DNA of 64,000 nt from Vicinamibacterales bacterium (GCA_038319675.1 JBBQDM010000003.1:201997-265996), one strand, 5' to 3'. Counted from the first letter of the stretch, positions 1,837 to 62,185 are shown. The notes: generated from the letters alone by a model not told the origin. Numbers and translations: made by a program.

Positions 1837-1854
1837 TTGGCAGAAGCAACCCGG

Positions 1855-1914
1855 TACGGAGCGGACGGGCTTCAGCCGGTCCGACGTCCGACGGGCTAAA
1901 GCCCGTCGGCTCCG
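1855..1914 (-). repeat. REP-like double-hairpin element, copy A (inverted relative to B and C)
   Basis: TACGGAGCGGACGGGCTTCAGCCGGTCCGACGTCCGACGGGCTAAAGCCCGTCGGCTCCG is the reverse complement of the 13068 and 58269 copies. Lies just after the FKBP stop codon. Confidence 0.85.
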
Positions 1915-1939
1915 AATAGTCTGCTGTTCCCGTGCAAGC

Positions 1940-3556: not shown

Positions 3557-3608
3557 CGCGGGTTTCGTTTGGTTAACGTGCTCTGCTCGCTTGGCAGCAG
3601 AGCGACCA

Positions 3609-3882
3609 ACCATGAAGCTCCATGAAGTTCCATGAAGGAATGCCTGTCACTGACCCGTGAGGGTTGGGGGCCAGGCGAAGCCTGGCCGTGCGGGAGGAGG
3701 GTGGTCGGGAACGAATACGCCGCATGAATGCGCCCGGCGCATTCGTTCCCGACCACCCTCCTCCCGCAGCTGCCGCCGTTGGCGGCACCCAACCCGCTCT
3801 CCAATCGTCCGTAACCTTGCTCTCTGGGCAACGTCGGTCACGTACGTGCCTTTCCTCATGGATCCTCATGGAACCTCATGGT
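3609..3882 (+). repeat. family-A structured intergenic element, copy 1
   Basis: Arms of 3x10-bp CATGAAGNNN (left) and CCTCATGGNN (right), AATGCCTGTCACTGAC box, and a core at 3661-3795 with a four-way-junction fold including a 33-bp hairpin. Homologous to 26321-26607 and 48337-48677. Confidence 0.9.
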
Positions 3883-3902
3883 GAATATTCCTGACGAACG
3901 CG

Positions 3903-5801: not shown

Positions 5802-8800
5802 TTACCAGTTGAACCGGATCATCAGCTGGCCGAGGCGGCCACCTGGGTCGTAGGTATTGCTCGGGTCGTTGTAGGCGCTGGTGACCTGGAAGATCGTCGC
5901 GCCCGTGCCGGGGTTCGAGACCGGGTTGAAGTTGACGTTGTCGAACAGGTTCAACACGTCACCGCGCACCTCAACATTCATCGTGCCTCTGAGGTTAAAG
6001 CGTTTGGTCACACCGACGTCAAAACGCGTGAACCACGGTGCACGCACGATCGTCGTCCGCGGTGCACAGTCGCCGGCGCGGATCTGCAGACAGCCATCCG
6101 AGTTCGCGGGGGCGATGTAGCGGCCTGTCGGTACCCCGAGGGTGCCGTAGCCGGTGGTGCTTGTGGTCCCGGTGGTGAACGCGCGACGGGTGTTGAGAAT
6201 CACGTCTTCGGGCAGCATCCAGATTTCGGTGCGCCCCGTGCTCGCGTTCGTCCGCTTGTAGAACTTGTACATGTCCGTCAGTTCGGCCACTGACATGCCC
6301 ACCAAGCGCACGTTACCGAAGTTCACGACCGCTGCCTGGATACGTCCGACACCGTTCATGCTCCAGCCCCCAAGGAGGGCGTCGAGCACCGGGTGCATGT
6401 CCGCGCCAAAGCGCTGGCCGCGACCGATCGGCAGCGTCCAGTCCCACTGGCCCTTGAAGGCGTGACGAGGGGAGGTCGTGCTGGTGATCATGGTGCGCCC
6501 GAAGCTGAACCCGTCGAACGCCGAGCCGCCTTCGATGGCGTACTGGTAGTTGACGTTGGCCGACAGGCCGCGCGAGAGGCGCCGCCGCAGTTCGATTTGC
6601 AGGGCGTGGTAGTCACTGAACGCGCCGGAATCAGTGACGTTCACCGCATTGACGCGCGGATTCGGGATGAAGAAGTTCGCCGGCAGGCCCGCCGCGAGGG
6701 CGTTCTGCCGCCGCGTCAGGTTGCCTTCGAGATCTCCGGCCGCACCGATGGGGCTCGCGTTGGTACGCGCCAGACGCCCCACAAACGTCGTGTTCGTCCA
6801 GTTGGTGCCGCTGTAGGCCGCCGCATTACCGGCGTCGGTTCTGGCGTTAAAGTACGCCAGGTAGATCGGCAGCGGATTGGTTCCGGTGCCGGGACCGAAG
6901 TAGCGGAACGACCCCGCACGGGCGCCGCCGGCCACGTTGTTGGCCTGCAGGTTGGCCATCGCGAGCTTGAACTCGTCGAGGAACCCGTTGTTGAGCAGGC
7001 TTTCACCGCGGATCGTGTTGTAGTTGAGCGTGGACCACTGGTCGGTGCCCCGCGTCCCGAGGTAGCGCACTTCCACAGCCATGTCCTGGCCGATCGACCG
7101 CTGGACGCCGACCGTCCACGTCTGGCCCCTGCCCACCTGAATTTCCGGAGCAAACGCGTTCAGGCTGTCCACCCGGTTCGGGCGAGTGACAATCGGAAAT
7201 GTCGGCGTCTCATCAAACGCCGCCGTATTCAGCCGATTGCGCTGGCTGAACAACACCGGCCACGAGCCCCCATCCTGCAGGCCTGTGTTCACGTCACGAG
7301 TAAGGCTGATCGTGCTGCCGGGATTGGCCCCGAACACGCCGGTGAACTGGCTCAGGCCTTCACGGGCGTACGACATCGAGTAGCCCGCACGCAGCGTGGC
7401 CTGATCGGGATTGCCCAGGATCGTACGCAGCACGCCGTCCTGCACGTTGGGTCTCCACGCCACACTGATCGACGGCGAGAAGTTGTTGTAGTCCACGTTG
7501 TAGCCCTTCGTCCCCCCAATCAGCTGGGTGTACTCAGGAATCTCCTTGCCGCTGTTTGCCCCAGGCTGGAAGAAGTTGCAGCGGTCATAGACGCCCCCGC
7601 CGCCAATGCCGGAAATGCCGCACGCATCCGCCATCGACACCGTCGTCATGATGTCGTTGGTCGCGGTGAATGGCATCTGCAGGTCGTAGCGCAGTCCGGC
7701 CGTGACGGTCAGCGTCGGTGTCGCCCGCCACGAATCCTGCATAAACCCGGAGAACGTGTCCATGTACCCCGTACGCGTGCGGGGGCCAAACGCCACGTAC
7801 TTGTTGGTCTTGGGGTCCAGCGCCGCCTGTCCGGTGACCGAGGTCACGCGACCGGTCAGCATCGCGTAGTACGCACGGGCATCAGCCAGGTCCCCCGACG
7901 AGATCCCGGGGAAGTTGGTGCTGCTGAACATGTTGGCCGCTGGATCGAGGGCCGTGTTGAACCCAAGGCCGATGCCGGGCACCATCGTCTGGGCGCTGTC
8001 CGACACCGTGGCACGCTGCCACTCACCGCCGAAGCTCAGGCTGTGTGTGCCACGCTGCCAGCTGGTGGTGTTCGCGATCTTGTAGGTCGGCGCACTGCGC
8101 CAGGACGGAAGATTCGACGTATGCCAGTTCGTCCAGGCCAACGGCAGAGTGACCGCGAAGCCCCCAAAATCCTCGAAGGTCTGGGGGCCGTTGGTGGCCG
8201 GGTTGCCGAACCGCGACTCGCCTCCCAACGCAGTGATGTTGCCGCTCAACTCGTTGACCACGTTCTGCGACAGCGTGGACCGGAGCGTCATCGTATACAA
8301 CGGCCGCTTGGAGTTGAACCGGCGGAAGTTCGGCGCGCCGGGAAACCGGGGGTCGGCTGAATTGAGATAGTCCGGATCACGTTCCGCCCAAATGATCGCC
8401 CCTGTGCCGCTCAGACGGTGCCGATCGGTGATGTTGTAGTCGATACGCGCCGTCGGCTGGTGTTCGAACAACTTGGCCGGGCTCAGGAAGACGAACTGAT
8501 TGTTGATGGGATCGCTGGTCGTGTTGATCGTGCCAGTCGTTCGGGTCGCAGCATCGATCTTCCGGAGAATCGACATGATCGTCGGGTCAGTCGCCGAAAT
8601 CTGGCCGGAACCCGCCGCCAGCGTAAGCACGTTCACCTCACGGATCACGCCTGCGCTGGTTTCATAGGGGAACCAGCCGTCCAGCATCCGCGTCGGCAGA
8701 ATCGTCCGCGTACGCGTGAAGCTGTTCGGGAACCGGATCTGCTCATAGTTCAGGAAGTAGAACATCTTGCCGCGACCGTCAAAGCCCGGCAGGATGACGG

Positions 8801-9659
8801 GGCCACCGACACGGCCGCCATACTGGTTCAACTTCACCTCGTTCTTCGGAAGCCCGTTGATTTCGTTGAAGAAGTAGTTCGAGTTCATCCGGGGATCACG
8901 GTAGTACTCGTAGAGACTGCCCGAGAACCGGTTGCCGCCCGAGCGTGTCTGGAAGGCAATCGTCACCGCGCCGCTGCCGCCCAACTGGGCACCAGCCGCC
9001 GCCATCGTCACCGTCACAGCCTCGACGGCATCCTGCCGCGGCGTGACGGAGGCGAAGAAGCCGTCCGACGACCGCAGGAAGTTGTCGTTGTTGCTCGCGC
9101 CGTCCATGGTGATCTGCACAAACGAGTCTGGCAGACCGTTAATCGATGAGTTGCGGTTCGAGCTTGTGGTGTTGACACCAGGCAGGAAGGCCACGGCGTT
9201 CAGCGCGTTGCGGGTCGGGGTCGGCATGCGGTTCAACTGATCCGAGTTCAATGTGGCCGTGACCGTCGCCGTCTGCGTGTTGATCAATTCGGAGCTGCTC
9301 GTGACGTTGACCGTCTCGGTCAACTGGCCGACTTCGAGCGTCAGATTCGCCGTGGCCGGCACTCCGATGGCCACCCGCAGGTTGCTGACCTGCGCCGTCT
9401 TGAAGCCGGTAAGGGTCGCCGACACCGTATACGTGCCGGCCTGCAGCGCCACCACGGAATAACTGCCGGTGGTGCCGGTCACCGCCTCAAACGTCGCCCC
9501 AGTGGTCGTGTTGGTAATCACCACCGTGGCGCCAGGAATGACGCCGCCGGCCGAGTCTCTGACCACGCCCGTAATGGACGCCCCCTGGGCAAACGCCAGG
9601 GTCGAGGTACACACAACGAGCGCTGCCGCCAGCAGCACACGCCAAACACTTCGTTTCAT
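5802..9659 (-). CDS. TonB-dependent receptor-like outer-membrane protein with N-terminal carboxypeptidase-regulatory-like domain
   Basis: Start moved to ATG 9659 (MKRSVWRVLLAAALVVCTSTLAFAQG, GGAGGAGG RBS upstream). SITGVVRDSAGGVIPGATVVITN is a CarboxypepD_reg motif. C-terminal ..RLGQLMIRFNW is a beta-barrel terminus. Confidence 0.88.
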   Translation of the reverse strand: MKRSVWRVLLAAALVVCTSTLAFAQGASITGVVRDSAGGVIPGATVVITNTTTGATFEAVTGTTGSYSVVALQAGTYTVSATLTGFKTAQVSNLRVAIGVPATANLTLEVGQLTETVNVTSSSELINTQTATVTATLNSDQLNRMPTPTRNALNAVAFLPGVNTTSSNRNSSINGLPDSFVQITMDGASNNDNFLRSSDGFFASVTPRQDAVEAVTVTMAAAGAQLGGSGAVTIAFQTRSGGNRFSGSLYEYYRDPRMNSNYFFNEINGLPKNEVKLNQYGGRVGGPVILPGFDGRGKMFYFLNYEQIRFPNSFTRTRTILPTRMLDGWFPYETSAGVIREVNVLTLAAGSGQISATDPTIMSILRKIDAATRTTGTINTTSDPINNQFVFLSPAKLFEHQPTARIDYNITDRHRLSGTGAIIWAERDPDYLNSADPRFPGAPNFRRFNSKRPLYTMTLRSTLSQNVVNELSGNITALGGESRFGNPATNGPQTFEDFGGFAVTLPLAWTNWHTSNLPSWRSAPTYKIANTTSWQRGTHSLSFGGEWQRATVSDSAQTMVPGIGLGFNTALDPAANMFSSTNFPGISSGDLADARAYYAMLTGRVTSVTGQAALDPKTNKYVAFGPRTRTGYMDTFSGFMQDSWRATPTLTVTAGLRYDLQMPFTATNDIMTTVSMADACGISGIGGGGVYDRCNFFQPGANSGKEIPEYTQLIGGTKGYNVDYNNFSPSISVAWRPNVQDGVLRTILGNPDQATLRAGYSMSYAREGLSQFTGVFGANPGSTISLTRDVNTGLQDGGSWPVLFSQRNRLNTAAFDETPTFPIVTRPNRVDSLNAFAPEIQVGRGQTWTVGVQRSIGQDMAVEVRYLGTRGTDQWSTLNYNTIRGESLLNNGFLDEFKLAMANLQANNVAGGARAGSFRYFGPGTGTNPLPIYLAYFNARTDAGNAAAYSGTNWTNTTFVGRLARTNASPIGAAGDLEGNLTRRQNALAAGLPANFFIPNPRVNAVNVTDSGAFSDYHALQIELRRRLSRGLSANVNYQYAIEGGSAFDGFSFGRTMITSTTSPRHAFKGQWDWTLPIGRGQRFGADMHPVLDALLGGWSMNGVGRIQAAVVNFGNVRLVGMSVAELTDMYKFYKRTNASTGRTEIWMLPEDVILNTRRAFTTGTTSTTGYGTLGVPTGRYIAPANSDGCLQIRAGDCAPRTTIVRAPWFTRFDVGVTKRFNLRGTMNVEVRGDVLNLFDNVNFNPVSNPGTGATIFQVTSAYNDPSNTYDPGGRLGQLMIRFNW

Positions 9660-9758
9660 GAAACGCTCCTCCTCCGAGATACACCTGTGTTGACTTGCAC
9701 GTCCCTCACGTCGGCGTGACGTAACGCCGAAGTAACGAGCCGATGTGAGGTGCACGGG

Positions 9759-9787
9759 ACTGTATGGCCGGGCCATTATCCTGTCAA
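9759..9787 (-). promoter_or_regulatory. sigma70-like promoter of TBDR gene (TTGACA-17-TACAGT)
   Basis: Minus strand reads TTGACAggataatggcccggccaTACAGT. It is followed by a ~95-nt leader with the inverted repeat CCTCACATCGG...CCGACGTGAGG. Confidence 0.5.
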
Positions 9788-9859
9788 TACTGGAGGAGGG
9801 CATCTTGATTCGGTCAGTACAAAGGCACACAACTCCAGGCAACACGGGAGGCCTACCCG

Positions 9860-9887
9860 ATGGAGGATGGAGGATGGAGGATGGAGG
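9860..9887 (+). repeat. (ATGGAGG)x4 heptamer tandem repeat
   Basis: Four perfect 7-bp units, 15 nt from the tRNA-Pro 3' end. Confidence 0.9.
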
Positions 9888-9902
9888 GCTGAAGAGAAGA
9901 AA

Positions 9903-9979
<77 letters not shown>

Positions 9980-9985
9980 CCGACG

Positions 9986-10447
9986 TTACTTCTTCTTCGC
10001 TCTACCCGTGCGGGCGGGCTTGGGGTCCGCCGCCAACACGAACTCGGAGGCTGGGGGGCCGCCGAGTGTCTCAAGGATCCAGTGGAGTCCTTGTCGTACT
10101 TCCGTCAGGTGCGCTTTCGCACCGTCATCAAGCCCTGGCACCGCTCGCACGGCTTCCGGGACGTCAACATCCAGGTCGCTGGTCCCGGCCCTGGCGTCTG
10201 CTTCCTCCGCCAGTCGTCTCCGGACACCCGCGAGGGTCAACCCTTCGACAAGAATCAGGCGCTTGAGGTGCAGCACCCTTTCGACATCCGCCCGCCGGTA
10301 GACCCGCGGTCCGGTCGGCGTTTTCGTGACCCCGAGGTCGGGAAACTCAGCTTCCCACCCCCGCAACACAAACGGCGGGACTCCGGCGATCTCGCAGACC
10401 TCGGTAGCCCGGAATGCCGGCCGATTGGGGATCGAAACCGCGTCCAC
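9986..10447 (-). CDS. MerR-family transcriptional regulator
   Basis: N-terminal HTH: FRATEVCEIAGVPPFVLRGWEAEF..RVYRRADVERVLHLKRLI. Confidence 0.8.
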   Translation of the reverse strand: MDAVSIPNRPAFRATEVCEIAGVPPFVLRGWEAEFPDLGVTKTPTGPRVYRRADVERVLHLKRLILVEGLTLAGVRRRLAEEADARAGTSDLDVDVPEAVRAVPGLDDGAKAHLTEVRQGLHWILETLGGPPASEFVLAADPKPARTGRAKKK

Positions 10448-10465
10448 GAGTTCGAACAGTATACG

Positions 10466-11833
10466 TCAGGTGCGCTCTCTTCTGGGGCGACGCCGCACGC
10501 TGATCCGGATGGGCGACCCGAGAAACCCGAACTTCTGCCGGAGCTGATTGATCAGGAACCGCTCGTACGAGAAGTGGAACTCGGTCGCCACGTTGGTGAA
10601 AAACACGAACCGCGGCGGCGCACTCGCAATCTGCGACGCATACATGATGCGCACCTGCCGCCGATGTTTGCTGGTGGGCGGATTGGCGGTCGTAATCTGC
10701 TCCACAAACCGGTTCAGCTCCGACGTCCCCACCCGATGCGCCCGCGCCTCGGCCACACGCACGGCCATCTCCATCACCTTGGCCGTCCGGTCGCCGGTCA
10801 GCGCGGAGATATGGATCACCGGCGCAAATTCCAGGAACTTCAGCTGAAAGCGCAGCCGGTCGTCGTACGCCTTCACAAACTCCTGCGGGTCCCCTTCCAT
10901 CTTCGCCGCCATGAGGTCCCACTTGTTCACGGCAATGACGACGCCGCAGCCCGCCTCTTCGGCTTCTCCGGCGATCGCCGCATCACGGTCGGTGGCGCCT
11001 TCGGTGGCATCGATCACCAGCACGGCCACATCGGCCTGCGCCATCGCCCGTTTGGCGAGCACCACACTGATCGACTCGACCTGCCCCGCACTCGCCACCT
11101 TGCCGGGACGCCGCATGCCGGCGGTATCCACCAGACGGATGCGTTGTTTCTGATACTGCAGTACCACGTCCACCGAATCACGCGTGGTGCCGGGCATGTC
11201 GCTGACCATCACGCGATCTTCACGCAGCAGACGATTCACCAGCGACGACTTGCCCACGTTGGGGCGTCCGACAATCGCCAGACGAATCTCCGGCTCGGCT
11301 TCAACAGAAGGCTCAGTGGACTTGACCGGCATCGCGGCGATCAACGCATCAAGCAACTCGTACACGCCCGTGCCGTGTTCAGCCGAGACGCCCATCTGGT
11401 TCGAGAACCCGAGTTTGTGAAATTCGTTCTCGCGCGCCACGGACCGTTTGTCGTCGGCCTTGTTGACCGCGAGCAACACGGGACAATTCACCGTGCGAAT
11501 CGCCTGCGCGATCTGCTCATCACCGATAACGAGTCCCTCGCGACCATCCACCAGAAAGATCAGGACGTCGGCCGACTTCAGCGCGCGCATGCCGTGATCC
11601 ACCACGAGTTCGTGCAGCGGATCGGTCGTGGCGCCGAACAGGCCGCCGGTGTCGACAAGCGTAAAGTTGCGACCCGACCACTCCGCGGGCGCCGTCACCA
11701 CGTCGCGGGTTGTGCCGGCCACGGGGGCCACAATCGAGCGGCGCACACCGGTGATGCGGTTGAAGAGCGTGGACTTGCCGACATTGGGCCGACCGACGAG
11801 AACGACGGTGGGACCCACCCCTGGAGCGGACAT
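10466..11833 (-). CDS. der: ribosome-biogenesis GTPase Der (EngA), double G domain
   Basis: Two GRPNVGKS(T/S)L P-loops, DTGG and DTAG, NKAD and NKWD, and a KH-like C-terminus. Confidence 0.95.
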   Translation of the reverse strand: MSAPGVGPTVVLVGRPNVGKSTLFNRITGVRRSIVAPVAGTTRDVVTAPAEWSGRNFTLVDTGGLFGATTDPLHELVVDHGMRALKSADVLIFLVDGREGLVIGDEQIAQAIRTVNCPVLLAVNKADDKRSVARENEFHKLGFSNQMGVSAEHGTGVYELLDALIAAMPVKSTEPSVEAEPEIRLAIVGRPNVGKSSLVNRLLREDRVMVSDMPGTTRDSVDVVLQYQKQRIRLVDTAGMRRPGKVASAGQVESISVVLAKRAMAQADVAVLVIDATEGATDRDAAIAGEAEEAGCGVVIAVNKWDLMAAKMEGDPQEFVKAYDDRLRFQLKFLEFAPVIHISALTGDRTAKVMEMAVRVAEARAHRVGTSELNRFVEQITTANPPTSKHRRQVRIMYASQIASAPPRFVFFTNVATEFHFSYERFLINQLRQKFGFLGSPIRISVRRRPRRERT

Positions 11834-11861
11834 CCAAGCAGTGTAGCAGTTACGGGGGCAC

Positions 11862-11890
11862 TTGACTCCGTAAGTAGTCGTCTTTATAGT
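11862..11890 (+). promoter_or_regulatory. sigma70-like promoter of HU/IHF gene (TTGACT-17-TATAGT)
   Basis: TTGACTccgtaagtagtcgtcttTATAGT, bracketed by the inverted repeat GTTACGGGGGCAC (11849-11861) / GTGCCCCGTAAC (11907-11918). Confidence 0.55.
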
Positions 11891-11920
11891 GACTTACAGA
11901 CATCACGTGCCCCGTAACTC

Positions 11921-12196
11921 ATGATCAAAGTCGACATCGTCAACGAGGTGTCGCGTATTGCGGACATCACCAAAGTGAAGGCCGAAGTGGCCGTCGACGC
12001 GGTGTTCGACGCCATGCGCACCTCCATGATGAAGGGGGATCGCATCGAACTCCGCGGATTCGGGGTCTTTCAGGTCAAACCCCGCAAACGTGGCATCGGC
12101 CGTAATCCCCGCACCGGCAAGGAAGTGAAGATTCCGCCGGGGCGCACGATCAGGTTCAAACCCGGCAAGGACCTGCAGAACATCTCCGGTGAGTGA
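11921..12196 (+). CDS. HU/IHF-family DNA-binding protein
   Basis: GFGVFQVKPRKRGIGRNPRTGKEVKIPPGRTIRFKPGK is the typical beta-arm sequence. Confidence 0.92.
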   Translation: MIKVDIVNEVSRIADITKVKAEVAVDAVFDAMRTSMMKGDRIELRGFGVFQVKPRKRGIGRNPRTGKEVKIPPGRTIRFKPGKDLQNISGE

Positions 12197-13040: not shown

Positions 13041-13067
13041 TTCGCACTCGAGCACTCGCAATTCTTT

Positions 13068-13127
13068 CGGAGCCGACGGGCTTTAGCCCGTCGGACATCA
13101 GACGGGCTGAAGCCCGTCTGCTCCGTA
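13068..13127 (+). repeat. REP-like double-hairpin element, copy B
   Basis: CGGAGCCGACGGGCTTTAGCCCGTCGGACATCAGACGGGCTGAAGCCCGTCTGCTCCGTA, between the convergent M50 and priA stops. Confidence 0.85.
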
Positions 13128-13149
13128 CTACACGGTGTCCGAAGGCGCA

Positions 13150-15372: not shown

Positions 15373-16103
15373 TCGGTTGTCGTCAGGAGGGATTTCACCA
15401 GCTTCATGTCGTCCCAGACATCCCGCTTCCGATCGGGACTCCGCAACAGGTACGCCGGATGAAAGGTGGGGATGAGGATGGCGCCGCGATACTCGTACTG
15501 TTTGCCGCGCATCTGCGAAATCGGCACATCGGTGCGCAGCAGCGTATGCGCCGCATGGGTGCCAAGCGCGACGATCACCTTCGGCTTGATCACATCGATC
15601 TGCCTGAACAGGAACGGCTCACACGTGGCGATTTCATCCGGCTCCGGGTTCCGGTTGGCCGGTGGTCGGCACTTGATCACGTTCGCGATGTACACGTCTT
15701 CGCGCCGCAAATCGATCGCTTCGATGATCTTGGTCAGCAACTGCCCAGCCCGTCCGACAAACGGCACGCCTTGTTCGTCTTCATCGGCGCCAGGGGCTTC
15801 GCCGACGAACATCAAATCGGCGTTCGGATTGCCGGAGCCGAACACGATCTTCGTTCGGCCAAGGGTATGCAGCTTGCAGCGGGTGCAGTCGCCGATCTCG
15901 GAGCGAATCGCTTCAAGGGTGCTCTCGTGCTCAGGTGCTCCGGTGCTCTGGTGCTCTTGTGCGCTTGTGCTCATGTGCTCGGGTGCTCCTGTGCTCTCGT
16001 GCTCGGGTGCACCTGCGCGCTGGCGCCATGCGGGATCCGTCGTGACGCCGGCCACGCCGAGGTCGCGGTAATACTTCAAATGTTCCCGCACGTCGTCATT
16101 CAT
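15369..16103 (-). CDS. uracil-DNA glycosylase, family 4, with repeat-containing N-terminal linker
   Basis: [40 protein letters not shown] motifs. N-terminal 4x8-aa GAPEHEST repeat. Confidence 0.9.
15919..16014 (-). repeat. (GTGCTCNN)x12 8-bp tandem repeat inside the UDG coding region
   Basis: Twelve contiguous 8-bp units read directly on the plus strand. They encode 4x GAPEHEST-like octapeptides. Confidence 0.95.
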
Positions 16104-25493: not shown

Positions 25494-26305
25494 CCGCTCT
25501 CGACATCCTCATCGTCAACTTCAATACACGCGACGACCTGTTGGCGTGCCTTGCCTCGTTGCACGCCACGCCTCCGGCGCGGCCGCATCACATCTGTGTC
25601 GTTGACAACGCCTCGAGTGACGACAGCGTCGCCATGGTGCGTGCACAGTTTCCGGCAGTGGACGTGGTGGCGCTGGACACCAACGTCGGGTTTGCGGCCG
25701 CCAACAACGTCGGGATTCGGCGCACGAACGCGCCGCTGGTGCTGCTGCTCAATTCGGACACGGTCGTGCCGGCGGGTGCGCTGGACCGCCTTGTCGAGCG
25801 ACTCGAGACGACCGGAGCCGCCGTGGCCGGGCCCCGACTCGTGGATGCTGACGGTCAGCCGGAGATCTCGTGGGGCCCGATGCTCTCGCCGGTCGCCGAA
25901 GCCCGACAGGCCGTGCGGATGCGCCTCGCGGCTAGGCGGAGTCCCTCGACGCAGCGCATGGTGCAGCGGTGGACGAGCCAGGAGCGATGGGTGGACTGGG
26001 TGACCGGCGCGTGCCTGCTCGTCCGTCGCGACGCAGCCGTCGCCGCAGGCCTGCTCGACGAGCGGTACTTCATGTACGAGGAGGATGTGGACTTCTGCGC
26101 CACTGTGCGCGCCGGTGGAGGACGGTGCCTGTTCACCCCGGCCTCAGAGGTCATCCATCGCCGTGGCCGCTCCTTCGCCGCCACAGGCGCCCGGCCCTCC
26201 CCGCTCTACGACCGCAGCCACGTCGCCTTCTACGACAAACACCTCCCCCACTGGGCACCCGTCCTCCGTGCGTGGCTCAGACTCCGAGGGCGAGCGCCAG
26301 AGTGA
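25490..26305 (+). CDS. glycosyltransferase family 2
   Basis: MTALDILIVNFNTRDDL..VVDNASSDDS..NVGFAAANN. ATGA overlap with the upstream stop. Confidence 0.85.
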   Translation: MTALDILIVNFNTRDDLLACLASLHATPPARPHHICVVDNASSDDSVAMVRAQFPAVDVVALDTNVGFAAANNVGIRRTNAPLVLLLNSDTVVPAGALDRLVERLETTGAAVAGPRLVDADGQPEISWGPMLSPVAEARQAVRMRLAARRSPSTQRMVQRWTSQERWVDWVTGACLLVRRDAAVAAGLLDERYFMYEEDVDFCATVRAGGGRCLFTPASEVIHRRGRSFAATGARPSPLYDRSHVAFYDKHLPHWAPVLRAWLRLRGRAPE

Positions 26306-26320
26306 TCAATCGTGCGATCC

Positions 26321-26607
26321 ACCATGAGGTTCCATGAGGATCCATGAGGAATGCACGACTCGACACACAGGGAGACAAGAGTCATCGAGAGCAAAGACAC
26401 GGACACTTGGGGAGCGGGTTGGGGTGCCGCCATAGGCGGCAGATGCGGGAGGAGGGTGGCCGGGAACGAAAGAGACGTCGGGTGTCTTGTTCACGTCTCT
26501 TTCGTTCCCGGCCACCCTCCTCCCGCACGGCCAGGCTTCGCCTGGCCCCCCAACCCTCACAGTCACTGACAGGCATTCCCTCATGGAACCTCATGGAGCC
26601 TCATGGT
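26321..26607 (-). repeat. family-A structured intergenic element, copy 2 (inverted orientation)
   Basis: Reverse complement aligns with copy 1 along its whole length. Near-perfect repeat arms ACCATGAGGTTCCATGAGGATCCATGAGG / CCTCATGGAACCTCATGGAGCCTCATGGT. GATCC lies on both flanks (26316-26320, 26608-26612). Confidence 0.9.
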
Positions 26608-26669
26608 GATCCTTCCGGGGGCTACTGTTCGCGAAGCTCCACTCCTACGAGGCAGGATAAGATCCCCAA

Positions 26670-27788
26670 GTGCCGGCCCGAATCGCCATCGACGCCAGAA
26701 AACTGCATGACTACGGCATTGGCACGTACGTCAGAAATCTGGTCAGCGAGTTCGCCCGGCAGCCCACCAGCGACACCTACGTGCTCATCTGCCACCCGGA
26801 CGATGCTGAGTTTGTGCGGGCATTGGGTCCGTCGTTTGAGGCGTGGCCCGACACCTCGGCGAACTATTCCATTCGCGAACAGCTGACCGTGCCCATGGAC
26901 CTGCGTCGGGCGAAGGTGGACCTGTTTCACGCGCCCCACTACGTCGTGTCCCCCCTGGTCGGGTGCCCGGTGGTGGTGACCATTCACGACTGCATCCACC
27001 TGCGGTTTCCGCAGTATCTGCCCAACCGAATGGCGCATCTCTACGCAAAGACGTTCATGGCCATCGGGGCCAACCGCGCCAAACGTATCATCACAGTCTC
27101 GCAGGCCTCGAAAGACGACATCCAGCACTACCTGCATACGTCGGCGTCGAAGATCGAGGTGATTCACAACGGTCTGGACGCGCGCTACCACTCCGCCCCT
27201 GACGAACACGCGGTGTCGCAGGTGCGCGAGCGCTTTCTGCTCAACGCGCCGTTCATCCTGTATGCCGGTAACATCAAGCCGCACAAAAACGTCGAGCGCC
27301 TCATCGACGCCTTCGCGCTGCTGCGGCAGGACGGCCATCAGGACCTGAAACTGCTCATTATCGGTGACGAACTCTCGAAGTATCCGGGCCTGCGTCGACT
27401 CGTGCATCGCCACCACCTGCACGCCCACGTCCGTTTCTTCGGCTTTGTGCCCGACGCCACCCTGGCCGCGTTGTACAAACTCGCGTCCATCTTTGTGTTC
27501 CCGTCCCTCTTTGAAGGGTTTGGTTTTCCACCGCTTGAGGCGATGGCCAGCGGCACACCGGTGATCACGTCCAACGTGTCGTCGCTGCCTGAAGTCGTCG
27601 GCGACGCCGCGCTGCTTGTGGATCCGCACGACCCGAAGGCGATCGCGGCGGCGATGGCCCGCGTCCTCAACGAGCCGACGCTGCGCCGGGAGTTGATCGC
27701 CCGTGGGTATACCCGGGCGCGCGCCTTCTCCTGGACCGACGCCGCCGCCCGCACGCGTGAGGTGTATCACTCGGTGCTCAATGCGTGA
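26670..27788 (+). CDS. glycosyltransferase family 4
   Basis: [35 protein letters not shown] start gives [12 protein letters not shown]. Confidence 0.85.
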
Positions 27789-33863: not shown

Positions 33864-34030
33864 CGTTCATGGTTCCGCGGTTCATGGTTCCTGGTGCCGT
33901 TCGGGGTGCGTGGTGCTGGGTGCCTGGTGCTGGGTTCAGGGTCGGTGCCGAGTTCCCGTGCACTTCGCACCCCGAACCAAGCACCTCAGAACCCAGAACG
34001 GCACCGCGGAACCATGAACCGATGAACCAT
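33864..34030. repeat. palindromic intergenic element with tandem-repeat arms (element E)
   Basis: Left arm GTTCATGGTTCCGCGGTTCATGGTTCCTGGTGCCGTTC mirrors right arm GAACGGCACCGCGGAACCATGAACCGATGAACCAT. Inner inverted repeat GGGGTGCG...CGCACCCC. Confidence 0.8.
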
Positions 34031-47592: not shown

Positions 47593-47696
47593 TACGTATT
47601 ACCTCCGGCGGCAAATTTTTCAGAACCCGGCGGATAGTACCACACGGCCTCCGCTATAGACTATCGGCAGCATAGCAGCCTCACCCCAGTGCCCTG

Positions 47697-48290
47697 ATGG
47701 ATCATTTTGCACACGCCCCGCCCGTCGGCTCCGCCGAGCCCCGACCTGCCCCGCTCAGGACAGAGGAATACGCGGCGCTCCGGGCAACGATCCGGGAGCG
47801 CGGCACCCGGCGGATGACGCTGGTTGTGGCCACAGTGGTCGCCTGGGCGAGCCTGGCGCTCGTGGCCGACATCTGGCTGGGCACCCCGGTATCGAGCCTT
47901 GTGCCGCTGCTGGTGCTTGTGGCCGGCTTTGAAGTCACGTTTGCGCTGCACGTGGGTGTGGAACGGGTCGGCCGTTACCTGCAAGTGCACTATGAGGGGA
48001 CTCCTGACGCCCCTGCCTGGGAACACACGGCGATGCGGTTCGGCACGGTGCCCACACCTGCAGCCGGACGGGTGGACCCATTGTTCTCGACGCTCTTTAT
48101 CTTCGCGACTGCACTCAACCTCGTGCCGGTTGTGCTCGCCACCGTGGGGCTGCCTGGCGGCCTGCTCGAACTTGGCGTCTTCGGCGTGCTGCATCTCGTC
48201 TTTGTCGTGCGCATTGCCCGCGCCCGTGCCTACGCCTCTCGCCAGCGGCAGCTCGACCTTGCGGCGCTCACCGATCACGCATCCGCATAG
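47697..48290 (+). CDS. hypothetical membrane protein
   Basis: Four hydrophobic segments and GC3-rich codons. No recognisable motif. Confidence 0.55.
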   Translation: MDHFAHAPPVGSAEPRPAPLRTEEYAALRATIRERGTRRMTLVVATVVAWASLALVADIWLGTPVSSLVPLLVLVAGFEVTFALHVGVERVGRYLQVHYEGTPDAPAWEHTAMRFGTVPTPAAGRVDPLFSTLFIFATALNLVPVVLATVGLPGGLLELGVFGVLHLVFVVRIARARAYASRQRQLDLAALTDHASA

Positions 48291-48336
48291 ATTTCCGAAG
48301 CGGGGCCGCTCCCTGTTCGCGGCAGCAGAGCCTTTT

Positions 48337-48677
48337 AACATGAAGGTCAGTGAAGGTCATGAAGGTCATGGAGAAATGCCTGTCACTGACCCGTGAGGGT
48401 TGGGGGCCAAGCGCAGCTTGGCCGTGCGGGTGGAGGGCGACCGGGAACGAATACACCGGGGCGCCTTCATGCGGTGCATTCGTTCCCGGTCGCCCTCCAC
48501 CCGCATCTCTGCCGCCTGTGGCGGCACCCAACCCGCTGTCCATCGTCATCCCCCAAGATCGGGATGTCTCTGCCCCCTTCACGACCATCACGACCTTCAT
48601 CGTCCTTCACGTCAAAGCTCTTGCCTTTCCTCCGACCGAGAGTGCCTTGCTCCATGGCCCTCCATGTTCTACATGGT
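48337..48677 (+). repeat. family-A structured intergenic element, copy 3 (longer, nested arms)
   Basis: Same box and core (48397-48534) as copy 1. Inner arms CATGAAGGTCAGTGAAGGTCATGAAGGTCATGG / CCTTCACGACCATCACGACCTTCATCGTCCTTCAC. Outer right arm CTCCATGGCCCTCCATGTTCTACATGGT. Confidence 0.88.
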
Positions 48678-48911
48678 GAAAAACAAGTTGCGACTTGGGC
48701 AAACAATCCAACCGATTGTTGTCAAGAATCCAACACTCGTCGCGAAAACGACACAGCCGTACGCGATCCTGTCGGCAGTTGTACTGCACGAACGGACGTG
48801 ATCGGCCGATTACTCACTGTAGAACCGACAGTGACGACCCGGCTGATGATTCTCGGAACGAATCTCCAGTCGGGCACGTCGCTTGCATAGAAGGTTTTGT
48901 GAAGGGGGGCC

Positions 48912-55538: not shown

Positions 55539-56480
55539 TTACCTCTTCTTCGACTTCGCGGTCGGCTTTTTCTTGACCGCGGTCTTTTTGGCGGCCACCT
55601 TTTTGGCGGCCGGCTTCTTCGCGATGGTTTTTTTGGCGACAGCCTTTTTCACGACGGTCTTTTTGGCTGGCGCCTTCTTGACTGGAGCTTTTTTTGTAGG
55701 GGCCTTGGCCTTGGCCGCCTTGGCTGGCGGCGCGGGCTTTGCGGCCGCCTTGGGTGTCTTGGCCGCCTTGGCTGGCGGTGCCACCTTCACGGGCGCGACA
55801 GGTGCCGGAGTCGGAGTGGCGGCCACCGGGGCCACCGCTGCAGCCTTGGGGGCCTTCGGTGTGGTCTGTGTGCGTGACGCACGGTTCTTGCTGGCGAGCC
55901 GGGCGGCTTCGCGACTGGCCTGCTTGGCGGCTTCGCGCGACCCGATACGCGCCAGAATCTCTTCGACCGCTTCGAGCGCCGGTTGTGGTTTCGGCGCGTC
56001 AGCGACCTTGGGCATGACGACCACTTTGGCCGCCGGCCCCTTGCCGGCCTTGCCGCTGGCCTGCGGATCGTCAAACACGCGCACAAGATCAAACCCGTCA
56101 AACAACGGTCGATAGGTCCAAATCTCGGCGACCGCCACCTGATGCTGTTCGCAGAACCGGCGCGCGGCGTCGTACATCAAGACCGGCACGTACAGCGAAA
56201 ACGGCACTTTCGACTTACCGAAGTGCACCCACTGCGCCAGGGCTTCGAGTTTGTTGGTGGACTCCCCGGTCTCGATTTCGATGACCCGGACCGGCTTTTT
56301 GGAGTCCTGCAGGATCAAGTCCGGAAAGTACGTGCCGGTGCCGACCTTGAGGGCAAAGTCCCGGGCATCGCCCTTATTGGTCAGGACTTCGTACTTCTTG
56401 TCATGGGCGGCCTCAAGGAACCCGATCAAACGATCGTGCTCGGCCTGTTCACGCGCGGGGCGAATATAGATGGGCGACAC
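55539..56480 (-). CDS. PD-(D/E)xK-like N-terminal domain protein with histone-H1-like Lys/Ala/Pro-rich C-terminal tail
   Basis: GTG 56480 is preceded by GGAGG (alternative TTG at 56540). YFPDLIL..VRVIEIETGES is a nuclease-like motif (inference). The tail has repeated AKKxxAKK/PAKAAK over about 110 aa. Confidence 0.7.
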   Translation of the reverse strand: MSPIYIRPAREQAEHDRLIGFLEAAHDKKYEVLTNKGDARDFALKVGTGTYFPDLILQDSKKPVRVIEIETGESTNKLEALAQWVHFGKSKVPFSLYVPVLMYDAARRFCEQHQVAVAEIWTYRPLFDGFDLVRVFDDPQASGKAGKGPAAKVVVMPKVADAPKPQPALEAVEEILARIGSREAAKQASREAARLASKNRASRTQTTPKAPKAAAVAPVAATPTPAPVAPVKVAPPAKAAKTPKAAAKPAPPAKAAKAKAPTKKAPVKKAPAKKTVVKKAVAKKTIAKKPAAKKVAAKKTAVKKKPTAKSKKR

Positions 56481-56595
56481 GAGGCCTCCGACGCCGTTAG
56501 GGCACACGCCAAATCGGGCCAACTGCCTACCTGGCAGCAAGATAACGGCGATGACATCGTAACACTAAACGCCTGCGGGCCTGTACAATTCCCAT

Positions 56596-58241: not shown

Positions 58242-58268
58242 ACGTTTTCGGATTGGACGTAGTGTTTT

Positions 58269-58328
58269 CGGAGCCGACGGGCTTCAGCCCGTCGGACATC
58301 AGACGGACTAAAGTCCGTCTGCTCCGTA
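58269..58328 (+). repeat. REP-like double-hairpin element, copy C
   Basis: CGGAGCCGACGGGCTTCAGCCCGTCGGACATCAGACGGACTAAAGTCCGTCTGCTCCGTA, between convergent stops. The second stem carries compensated changes (GACGGAC/GTCCGTC versus GACGGGC/GCCCGTC). Confidence 0.85.
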
Positions 58329-58350
58329 CTGCACGCGTGTCGAGAGTGCC

Positions 58351-60515: not shown

Positions 60516-60591
60516 GTCCCCATCGTCCAGAGGCCTAGGACGTGGCCCTTTCAAGGCCAAGACCCGGGTTCGAATCCCGGTGGGGACGCCA
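60516..60591 (+). tRNA. tRNA-Glu (anticodon TTC), CCA encoded
   Basis: GTCCCCA/TGGGGAC acceptor, anticodon arm TGGCC-CTTTCAA-GGCCA, CCGGG-TTCGAAT-CCCGG T arm. Confidence 0.92.
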
Positions 60592-62185
60592 CTAGATGGA
60601 CGAGACCATCCAGTAAATTATCGGCCTGAATCGGCGCTTCCCATCGAGCGCCGCCATCGGGCTGATCCCACAGCGTCAGAGGGCCGACGACCTTACGTAG
60701 CAGGAGCCGCGCGACCTTCGGTTCGCCCCTCAAGATCGCCTTCCACGAGGTCACCCGCTGTTCCAAGGCGGCGCGGAGCTGCTCGATATTGGGCCGCTCG
60801 GTCCGGGGCCGACGAAGTTCCACGTCGAGGCGGGCCACCTCGGCCTGATGGGCGCGTACAACCGGCCCGATCGCCTCGGCAGGCATCCCCTTGGCGACTG
60901 ACTCTACGAGGTTCGTGATCGCCGTCTGCAGCCGTGCGCGTTCCGCTTCGAGAGAGGCGGTCTGATCCGGCGTGGTGTCTACGAGGGCCAGCAGCTCTTC
61001 GAGGTAGCGCGTGCCGAGGGCCTCGCCCTCCACGATGCCGAGTACGTCTTCGTCGGTTTCCGCGATCGGGAGTGCGAGGGTGTTCGTGCAGCACCCCGGT
61101 TTCCGGCGGCGCGTGCTGCAGATATACACGTTCGCCTGTCCCTTCCACGGCGCGATCCGCGCCTCGAAATGCCCACCGCAGGTCGGGCAGATCAACAGCC
61201 CGCCTGACAGCAGATACTTCCCATGCGCCCGTTCCGGCACTCGCCCACTGCCGTTCGCCACGGAGGCCTGGTAGCGGGTGCGTCGGTCGAGGCGTCGGGC
61301 GTCCACGCGCCTTGCCAAGTCCTCGTCGACGATCCGCAGAGCCGGGTCGTCACGGCGAAGCCACCGCTCCTCCGGCACCGCGATCATGCCCTTCTCGCGC
61401 GTGGATCGTTTGCCGAGTTCGCGGCCGTAGGCTTTCTTCGTCCGGCCGTAGATGACCTCGCCGCGATAGAGCGGGCGTTCGAGGACGGCGCGGATCGTGG
61501 ACGCCGACCAGCCTGACGGCCGACCCTGCTGCGCTCGTGGCGACGGCACGCCTCGCTTGTTAAGCAGGGCCGCGATCTGCCGGTTCCCGTCGCCGCTGGC
61601 CGCGCGTTCATAAATCTCGCGCACGATCGCGGCTTCGGCTTCGTTGATGCGTCGTTCGGCGTGGCCCTTACCGATCCGCTCGTTGTCGTAGCCGAAGACC
61701 TTGCCACCCGTCACGTAGCCCTGCTCGTGCTTTCGGTACATCGCGTCGGTGGTCACCTTGCGGATCTGGTCCTTGTACTGCTGGTCGAACTCCGCTTTCA
61801 AGATCGTCGGGAGCCGATTCTCGAACGTGTCGAGTGCAATTTGACGGCCAGTGGAGGAATCCCACACCGCGATGCCGAGGTCCGCTAGATCGTGGAGCGC
61901 GGTCATCGTCTTGTGGCCGTCGCGGCCGAGCCGGTCAAGATCGTAGATAACCAAGGCCTCGAACGCGCCAGCCTCTGCATCTCGCATCATCCGTTGATAT
62001 CCAGGCCGAGTCACGAACAGCGCACCACTGACGCCGTCGTCGGTGTAGATATGTGCCTCGTCGAGCGTCCAGCCCTTCGCGGCGATGAACGCTCTCGCGC
62101 CATCGACTTGGCGCGTAACGGACTTGGCGTCGGAAGCGACGTCGGATTGGTCGGTCGATTTTCTGGAGTAGACGGCCGTGATCAT
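60551..62185 (-). CDS. large serine recombinase (integrase)
   Basis: N-terminal resolvase domain AVYSRKSTDQ (catalytic Ser), DLDRLGRD. Recombinase domain, zinc ribbon CPTCGGHF..CSTRRRKPGCC, coiled-coil. The last ~13 codons are antisense to the tRNA-Glu 3' half. Confidence 0.9.
   Translation of the reverse strand: MITAVYSRKSTDQSDVASDAKSVTRQVDGARAFIAAKGWTLDEAHIYTDDGVSGALFVTRPGYQRMMRDAEAGAFEALVIYDLDRLGRDGHKTMTALHDLADLGIAVWDSSTGRQIALDTFENRLPTILKAEFDQQYKDQIRKVTTDAMYRKHEQGYVTGGKVFGYDNERIGKGHAERRINEAEAAIVREIYERAASGDGNRQIAALLNKRGVPSPRAQQGRPSGWSASTIRAVLERPLYRGEVIYGRTKKAYGRELGKRSTREKGMIAVPEERWLRRDDPALRIVDEDLARRVDARRLDRRTRYQASVANGSGRVPERAHGKYLLSGGLLICPTCGGHFEARIAPWKGQANVYICSTRRRKPGCCTNTLALPIAETDEDVLGIVEGEALGTRYLEELLALVDTTPDQTASLEAERARLQTAITNLVESVAKGMPAEAIGPVVRAHQAEVARLDVELRRPRTERPNIEQLRAALEQRVTSWKAILRGEPKVARLLLRKVVGPLTLWDQPDGGARWEAPIQADNLLDGLVHLVASPPGFEPGSWP

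Follow-up and report, generated by a model that had tools for sequence, protein, structure and literature searches.

A probable new family of non-coding, nested-palindrome DNA repeats in Vicinamibacterales-like Acidobacteriota

Family A is an intergenic element with three copies in the 64,000-nucleotide stretch of DNA analyzed here, in the following called the window. We conclude that it is probably a new family of non-autonomous, non-coding DNA repeats built from nested palindromes, MITE- or REP/BIME-like in kind, which would be mobilized in trans. Family A resembles MITE and REP elements without being a strict member of either named family. A sequence-only reading of the window had offered three options for the element, i.e., a structured ncRNA, a MITE-like mobile module or a protein-binding DNA architecture. 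The MITE-like option was best supported, namely by site polymorphism, dispersed copies, inverted arms, internal-deletion derivatives and the lack of coding capacity. The hosts of family A are a Vicinamibacterales-like lineage of acidobacteria and a few further uncultured bacteria. The window is an ordinary acidobacterial chromosome with 64% GC, and its closest ABC-F homologues are named Vicinamibacterales or Acidobacteria.

All three copies were present where they had been claimed (Table 1). The limits initially given for them were right in position but too short, because two conserved end sequences, GGCAGNAGAGC and CCGGAWTATTCA, extend past the arms. The conserved 16-nt box AATGCCTGTCASTGAC was found exactly three times in the window, once per copy, as expected from the first description. 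Arms of three repeat units on each side, also described there, were seen in copies 1 and 2, but copy 3 has different arm units. The arm pattern CCATGARGNNCCATGARG matched 11 times in the window, always within the three copies, compared with 1.6 matches expected, and no shuffle reached 11. Moreover, the hairpin signature CGGGAACGAA...TTCGTTCCCG occurred three times in the window against an expectation of zero.

Table 1. Positions of family-A parts in the window, and of two further sets of repeats
Feature	Position	Strand	Remarks
Copy 1, whole element	about 3580-3891	+	
Copy 1, G-end	3580-3603	+	GGCAGCAGAGC (3593-3603) pairs back to GCTCTGCT (3580-3587)
Copy 1, left arm	3610-3637	+	3 x CCATGAAG, 10-nt spacing
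Copy 1, box AATGCCTGTCACTGAC	3639-3654	+	unpaired; holds palindrome GTCA-C-TGAC
Copy 1, core	3661-3795	+	closing helix 3661-3668 with 3788-3795
Copy 1, hairpin 1	3669-3687	+	tip GCGAAGC
Copy 1, long hairpin	3690-3767	+	invertible apex 3717-3740
Copy 1, hairpin 3	3771-3787	+	
Copy 1, spacer from core to right arm	3796-3853	+	poorly conserved
Copy 1, right arm	3854-3881	+	3 x CCTCATGG, inverse of left arm
Copy 1, C-end TGAATATTCC	3882-3891	+	
Copy 2, whole element	26312-26618	-	read on the - strand
Copy 2, end CCGGAAGGATCA	26618-26607	-	
Copy 2, arm 3 x CCATGAGG	26606-26579	-	
Copy 2, box	26577-26562	-	
Copy 2, closing helix	26556-26548 with 26424-26416	-	
Copy 2, hairpin 1	26547-26529	-	
Copy 2, long hairpin	26526-26445	-	perfect, 34 bp
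Copy 2, hairpin 3	26441-26425	-	
Copy 2, arm 3 x CCTCATGG	26349-26322	-	
Copy 2, end TGGATCGCAC	26321-26312	-	
Copy 3, whole element	about 48321-48684	+	
Copy 3, G-end GGCAGCAGAGC	48321-48331	+	
Copy 3, left arm	48339-48373	+	CATGAAGGTC/AGTGAAGGTC units
Copy 3, box	48375-48390	+	
Copy 3, core	48397-48534	+	closing helix 48397-48404 with 48527-48534
Copy 3, hairpin 1	48405-48423	+	tip GCGCAGC
Copy 3, long hairpin	48426-48504	+	apex orientation opposite to copy 1
Copy 3, hairpin 3	48510-48526	+	
Copy 3, inner right arm	48576-48611	+	pairs with left arm
Copy 3, inverted G-end GCTCTTGCC	48617-48625	+	after inner right arm; arrangement shared with L117
Copy 3, degenerate extra outer arm	48650-48684	+	CTCCATGG...CATGG (set 48650-48676) plus C-end-like TGAAAAAC
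Double-hairpin family, first copy	1854-1923		inverted
Double-hairpin family, second copy	13065-13134		
Double-hairpin family, third copy	58266-58335		
Iteron array, L129	2509-2536		IMG/VR contig
Iteron array, L130	410-437		IMG/VR contig
Iteron array, L131	5460-5487		IMG/VR contig

A family-A element measures about 280–360 bp. Its arms are 28–45 nt long, consist of 10-bp iterated CCATGARG units and have inverse orientation at the two ends. The units are phased at exactly one helical turn, with conserved 8-mer blocks and spacers that are not conserved; pairing between the arms is confined to blocks of 7–8 nt, and the 2-nt spacers between them are mismatched. Among copies, the arm 8-mer varies and reads CCATGAAG, CCATGAGG, CCATGGAG or GTGAAGG. 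Of the two conserved sequences beyond the arms, the G-end GGCAGNAGAGC is also found in copy 3, L117, L118, L120 and L121, where the flanks are unrelated. The other, the C-end (CCGGAWTATTCA, read inward), is shared by copy 1 with L115, L116, L117, L118 and L119.

Copy 1 is located between two convergent genes, which encode an ABC-F protein and a protein of 624 aa. Copy 2 lies between co-directional glycosyltransferase genes, GT2 (stop at 26305) and GT4 (start at 26670), and copy 3 upstream of a DNA methylase gene. All copies had been called intergenic, which is clear for copies 1 and 2, but copy 3, which starts after position 48290, abuts a region with two overlapping ORFs. These ORFs, 47661–48341 (−, 226 aa) and 47697–48290 (+, 197 aa), both have coding-like GC3 and are without Pfam match; depending on which one is real, copy 3 either follows the end of a gene or precedes the start of one. 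ORFs that cross the element itself differ in frame between copies and contain no Pfam domain, in agreement with their earlier interpretation as palindrome artefacts. In some public assemblies such ORFs are annotated as genes (P0001–P0011, none with a Pfam domain), which makes family A a source of spurious ORF calls. Across loci, the flanking genes are unrelated housekeeping genes and no neighbor recurs. A Pfam scan of about 30 window ORFs detected neither a transposase nor a RAYT (Y1 transposase), and at the fetched loci the only transposase was that of an IS110-family element interrupting the copy in L120. No parent autonomous IS sharing the family-A ends was found in the window or at the fetched loci, nor was a promoter-like site or a terminator found inside the element.

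Nine more copies were obtained from other assemblies, i.e., in total twelve copies at nine independent loci. L115 and L116 are orthologous to each other and lie between BcrAD/BadFG-type genes, with flanks that are 89% identical. L117, L119 and L124 all originate from MAG GCA_964630735.1, which has 93–95% nucleotide identity to the window. L118 is the same locus as L093 and comes from a record titled Acidimicrobiia, and L120, L121 and L122 are from JGI metagenomes. The productive search used a spurious ORF through the element as protein query, and a chimeric six-frame protein query found P0004 alone among the matches listed. When the 16-nt box alone was searched against 596 Gb of genome contigs, 113 of the 114 loci were chance matches and only L093 was real (nhmmer); the box pattern is too short for a search of this size. 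A metagenome scan with hairpin 1 plus GTGCGG yielded one locus, L118, and one with the box plus the closing helix yielded nothing, as did two viral scans with core patterns and BLAST searches against plasmids and phages. Core identity amounts to 85–89% between copies from apparently distant hosts, which could reflect purifying selection for a host function and not recent transfer.

When viral sequences were scanned with the arm pattern, three direct 10-nt CCATGRRGNN iteron arrays were detected on IMG/VR contigs (Table 1), all of which lack the family-A core. L130 carries three units of TTCCATGAGG, which is identical to a family-A arm unit. These arrays are probably chance occurrences among tandem arrays.

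Comparison of orthologous loci, proposed in the sequence-only reading as a check, showed that the copy-1 site at the junction of the ABC-F and the convergent gene is occupied in some relatives and empty in others. The window and L124 (93–95% nucleotide identity) have the element there. It is absent from L123 (82–86% nucleotide identity, ABC-F 98%), where a 4-nt spacer is found, and from L125–L128 (about 72–76% identity, ABC-F 91%), where the spacer has 40 nt. As two successive outgroups are without the element, the parsimonious reading of these alignments is that it would have been gained in the window lineage rather than lost at the empty sites. Insertion polymorphism together with target-site duplications had been named as the signature of an ordinary MITE. 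The polymorphism was observed but the duplications were not seen: at copy 1, L115, L116, L117, L118 and L119 there was no direct repeat outside the conserved ends, the termini being approximate. Copy 2 is flanked by GGATC on both sides, which may equally well be an extension of the inverted repeat.

The proposed four-way-junction core was reproduced in structure prediction, where each copy folds into arms plus a closing helix GGGTTGGG/CCCAACCC around three hairpins. The long hairpin, first described as 33 bp, varies in length: copy 2 has 34 bp, and copies 1 and 3 have 27 bp extended by another 5 bp. Predicted RNA folding energies were between −171 and −199 kcal/mol (z = −10 to −15.5), predicted DNA folding gave z values of −13.3 and −14.3, and strong folding was predicted on either strand. 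For copy 1, the − strand was predicted to fold better than the + strand by 18 kcal/mol, because arm mismatches become G·U there; the mismatches remaining between its arms are A·C on the + strand and G·T on the −.

We analyzed covariation in alignment A4, which contains nine full cores with 50 pairs in four helices, and used shuffled and slid alignments as controls. In this enlarged alignment, the four helices were 98.7% paired, and double-sided changes were seen at 15 pairs (2, 1, 10 and 2 per helix). None of 500 shuffles scored as high and the slid controls came nowhere close. As the covariation is far above the controls, we conclude that the four-helix junction is maintained. The exceptions in the nine cores were three G·U cells, about four A·C and two other mismatches. 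G·U and A·C are thus about equally rare and neither strand is favored, whereas G·U would be in excess if an RNA were made from one strand. Moreover, every hairpin loop is a triloop. All twelve copies have GCGNAGC at the tip of hairpin 1, with GAA as triloop in ten of them, GCA in copy 3 and GTA in L121, i.e., G and A are invariant and the middle position is free. GCGNAGC is an extraordinarily stable DNA mini-hairpin, and its RNA counterparts are much less stable (PMC13037366; PMC3201870).

The palindromes have been inverted, lost and altered between copies. In L115, the 24-nt apex of the long hairpin is the exact reverse complement of that in the orthologous L116. Apices of the copy-1 type have one orientation in three cases and the other in four, with differing inversion end points. 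The interior from box to core has one orientation relative to the end types in copies 1 and 3, L117 and L118, and the opposite one in copy 2, L115, L116 and L119. In L124, at the copy-1 locus, the long hairpin alone is cleanly gone (...GGCCGTGCGG|CTGCCGCC...), with the alignment break at 3694–3765. Two further copies have internal deletions, L119, where the apex is joined to the last arm unit, and L121, which is without the long hairpin and hairpin 3. L122 and L117 contain uncorrected transitions, in both arms. Strand symmetry, loop flips, hairpin loss and the GCGNAGC tip fit palindromes that extrude or fold in DNA.

Small hairpin-loop inversions are known from chloroplast DNA, and correction of quasipalindromes by template switching has reportedly been described in E. 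coli by Ripley and by Lovett. Family A is similar to both, as its stems are perfectly Watson–Crick with both arms changing together, and its loops exist in both orientations, even between orthologous loci. It differs from the quasipalindrome case in that the mechanism is read from a comparison of copies. Template switching from arm to arm or gene conversion inside the palindromes would keep the stems perfectly Watson–Crick, and from this we infer that apparent 'compensatory' changes would arise without selection on an RNA. Recombination between the inverted arms could flip the apex and the whole interior. The helices may matter, or be maintained, at the level of DNA, as cruciforms or as single-stranded hairpins during replication or transposition, and not in a transcript. 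A recombinase acting in trans would recognize the iterated arm units and the box and copy the element. Since a target-site duplication is not visible and a DNA mini-hairpin is present, a hairpin-recognizing or duplication-free recombinase (HUH/RAYT-like, serine or DEDD) would be a likelier mobilizing enzyme than a DDE cut-and-paste transposase, which is the weakest step in this proposal.

A structured ncRNA, either as a gene of its own or as a 3′-UTR element, would have a functional four-way junction, with the arms as a long closing stem and the box as a single-stranded recognition site. The very stable predicted folds and the covariation in all four helices would agree with this, as would the conservation of the unpaired box, the better predicted fold of the copy 1 − strand, where arm mismatches become G·U, and the location of all copies just 3′ of a stop codon, where they would be co-transcribed. 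We nevertheless consider an ncRNA unlikely. Its covariation is strand-symmetric, with core G·U (3) no commoner than A·C (about 4), and both orthologues and other copies carry loop sequences that are reverse complements of one another. About half of the copies have their interior turned around with respect to the ends, and relative to the upstream gene the element has the canonical orientation at three loci and the reversed one at six. Furthermore, a relative with 93–95% identity has lost the largest helix at the corresponding locus, the orthologous site is empty in near relatives, and the triloops include the DNA-specific GCGNAGC. A promoter-like site, an internal terminator and an Rfam match are all absent. 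The Rfam scan, a check suggested at the outset, yielded no family at gathering thresholds, i.e., just three tRNAs in the window and nothing at eight other loci. Lax thresholds gave just generic long-hairpin (miRNA precursor) matches far below gathering.

Another improbable option is a module of folded single-stranded DNA, in which the canonical strand, with its invariant GCGNAGC mini-hairpin, its junction of three hairpins and the iterated sites in the arms, would be the substrate of an undescribed hairpin-recognizing, duplication-free recombinase, or a dispersed priming or restart signal. A new class of large structured RNA with a four-way junction is less likely than such a module.

It appears quite unlikely that family A is a DNA signal used by the host, i.e., that the arm iterons bind a protein, or that the three hairpins on one strand form a priming/restart site or a site for nucleoid or cruciform-binding proteins. 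The helical phasing of the arm units with their conserved 8-mer blocks and unconserved spacers would be in line with this, and so would the 85–89% conservation of the core across hosts. GCGNAGC mini-hairpins are also typical of the G4-type and ssiA single-strand priming signals (PMC13037366). However, near relatives do without the element at the orthologous site, deletion derivatives persist, the arm 8-mer differs between copies, and no candidate binding protein recurs nearby. GC skew has one sign up to about 48 kb, a stretch that contains copies 1 and 2, but the three window copies are oriented +, − and +. Although all twelve copies have the GCGNAGC motif of single-strand initiation signals, this mixed orientation argues against a priming role.

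In L120, the family-A element is split by a complete 1.2-kb IS of the IS110 family (312–1514; DEDD_Tnp_IS110 and Transposase_20), whose left end measures 213 nt and whose right end is short. The insertion point, ...GACAGGCATTCCTT|CTTCATG... or, in another notation, GGCATTCCTT|CTTCATG, is the junction of box and arm, and the complement of the family-A box is part of the IS110 target. A fold with two internal loops was predicted for the left end of the IS. The 5′ side of loop 1, GGCAUUUCU, has the same sense as the left target at 8 of 9 positions, and its 3′ side, CAUGAAG, is antisense to the right target at 7 of 7. The 5′ side of loop 2, ACGGUAUC, corresponds to the right end of the IS together with the core. 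In the published bridge-RNA geometry, the 5′ side pairs with the bottom strand and the 3′ side with the top strand, and natural targets of bridge-RNA IS include REP elements (PMC11208160). IS621, ISPpu9 and ISPpu10 insert in REPs, and for ISPpu10 a structured hairpin target has been described. As the guide loops in L120 match the box/arm junction in this geometry, family A is to be seen as an IS target and not as an IS derivative. Judged from the predicted guides, it serves as the putative programmed landing site of the IS110-family element in L120.

Conversely, family A might be a remnant or miniature of the IS110 family, which would have kept the ends and the bridge-RNA region but not the recombinase, or the IS110 and the family-A halves might be one mobile unit. 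Both are highly improbable. In L120 the family-A halves do flank the IS and the recombinase gene adjoins the element. But this insert is complete by itself, its donor guides correspond to the ends of the IS and not to family A, and in none of the eleven other copies is a recombinase nearby. Neither a bridge-RNA region nor IS ends were found in family A; the recombinase is present in L120 alone and the guides are in the left end of the IS. Family A also has long inverted arms. To our knowledge, IS110-type elements, as described in ISfinder, do not have such arms. Subterminal inverted repeats are likewise described as absent from the IS110 type in the seekRNA paper PMC11187229.

Other candidates were rejected. 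A retron ncRNA (msr–msd) lacked an RT-family match among neighbors (Pfam in the window, precomputed Pfam with some '?' or '-' entries at other loci), and an attC/integron site lacked the cassette context. Copies at the 3′ ends of unrelated genes spoke against a riboswitch or leader, and the variation of the arm motif between copies against a Shine–Dalgarno/AUG decoy reading of CCATGAGG. A PhoB, CRP or LexA-like box showed half-site resemblance only.

The window and related loci contain further repeats and mobile features. A second intergenic repeat family is a REP/BIME-like double hairpin of 70 nt, CGGAGCCGACGGGCTTnAGCCCGTCGG-ACATCA-GACGGGCTnAAGCCCGTCTGCTCCG, with three copies that are 76–93% identical (Table 1). 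A third palindromic intergenic element at 33864–34030 is designed like family A, with direct-repeat arms of two GTTCATGGTTCC and two GGAACCATGAAC units around a 116-nt interior. It has a relative in L123 (20766–20831) between Peptidase_M50 and PriA, and the corresponding site in the window holds the double-hairpin copy 13065–13134 instead. At 15911–16026, between the coaBC stop (16100) and the start of a uracil-DNA-glycosylase domain, there is a tandem array of about 14 copies of the 8-nt GTGCTCNN. A 15-nt periodic repeat (TTTTTGGCGGCC...) at 55570–55680 lies within ORF 55539–56540 (−), which is without Pfam match. At 60516–62185, a large serine recombinase gene (60551–62185, −) abuts a tRNA gene (60516–60588, +), and this junction is probably the edge of an integrated element. 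In L126 (ABC-F 91%), a phage-type integrase and a DnaB-like helicase follow a TonB-dependent receptor gene at 8401–11971, which suggests an integrated element; this was not seen in the window.

Family A illustrates that DNA palindromes can mimic RNA covariation, which calls for caution in RNA-discovery pipelines on GC-rich uncultured phyla. The L120 insertion would be a natural IS110 bridge-RNA element programmed against a structured intergenic repeat, outside the model Proteobacteria. Family A could also serve as a strain-level marker in Vicinamibacterales-like Acidobacteriota.

Compared with known systems, family A shares with G4-type and ssiA signals several adjacent hairpins on one strand, as predicted, including a mini-hairpin of GCGNAGC/CCGAAGG type. 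In contrast to these signals, it is chromosomal, multi-copy and of mixed orientation, and the similarity is limited to the 7-nt motif. With bacterial MITEs such as Correia, ERIC, RUP and Nezha it has in common that it is small (below about 600 bp), non-coding, bounded by terminal inverted repeats and dispersed in several copies; it is polymorphic between relatives and has internal-deletion variants and spurious ORFs. It differs from MITEs, which have a target-site duplication at each copy, in that no such duplication is visible and no parent IS with the same ends was found. Moreover, its arms are three iterated 10-bp units and not a simple inverted repeat, and its interior is a conserved set of perfect palindromes.

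REP elements, which come in hundreds of copies, are imperfect palindromes of 20–40 bp with a single stem, compared with about 300 bp and hairpins nested within a closing helix in family A. They are classified by a GTAG or CGTC head tetranucleotide (PMC3733652), and this head was not seen in family A; nor was a RAYT gene among the roughly 30 window ORFs scanned. Like REP/BIME elements and rhizobial RIMEs, however, family A is extragenic, palindromic and a mosaic of modules that can be exchanged in either orientation. As with REP/BIME elements, its copies are found after stop codons and between convergent genes, and in L120 it is the specific, predicted landing site of an IS110-family element, as REPs are for IS621, ISPpu9 and ISPpu10.
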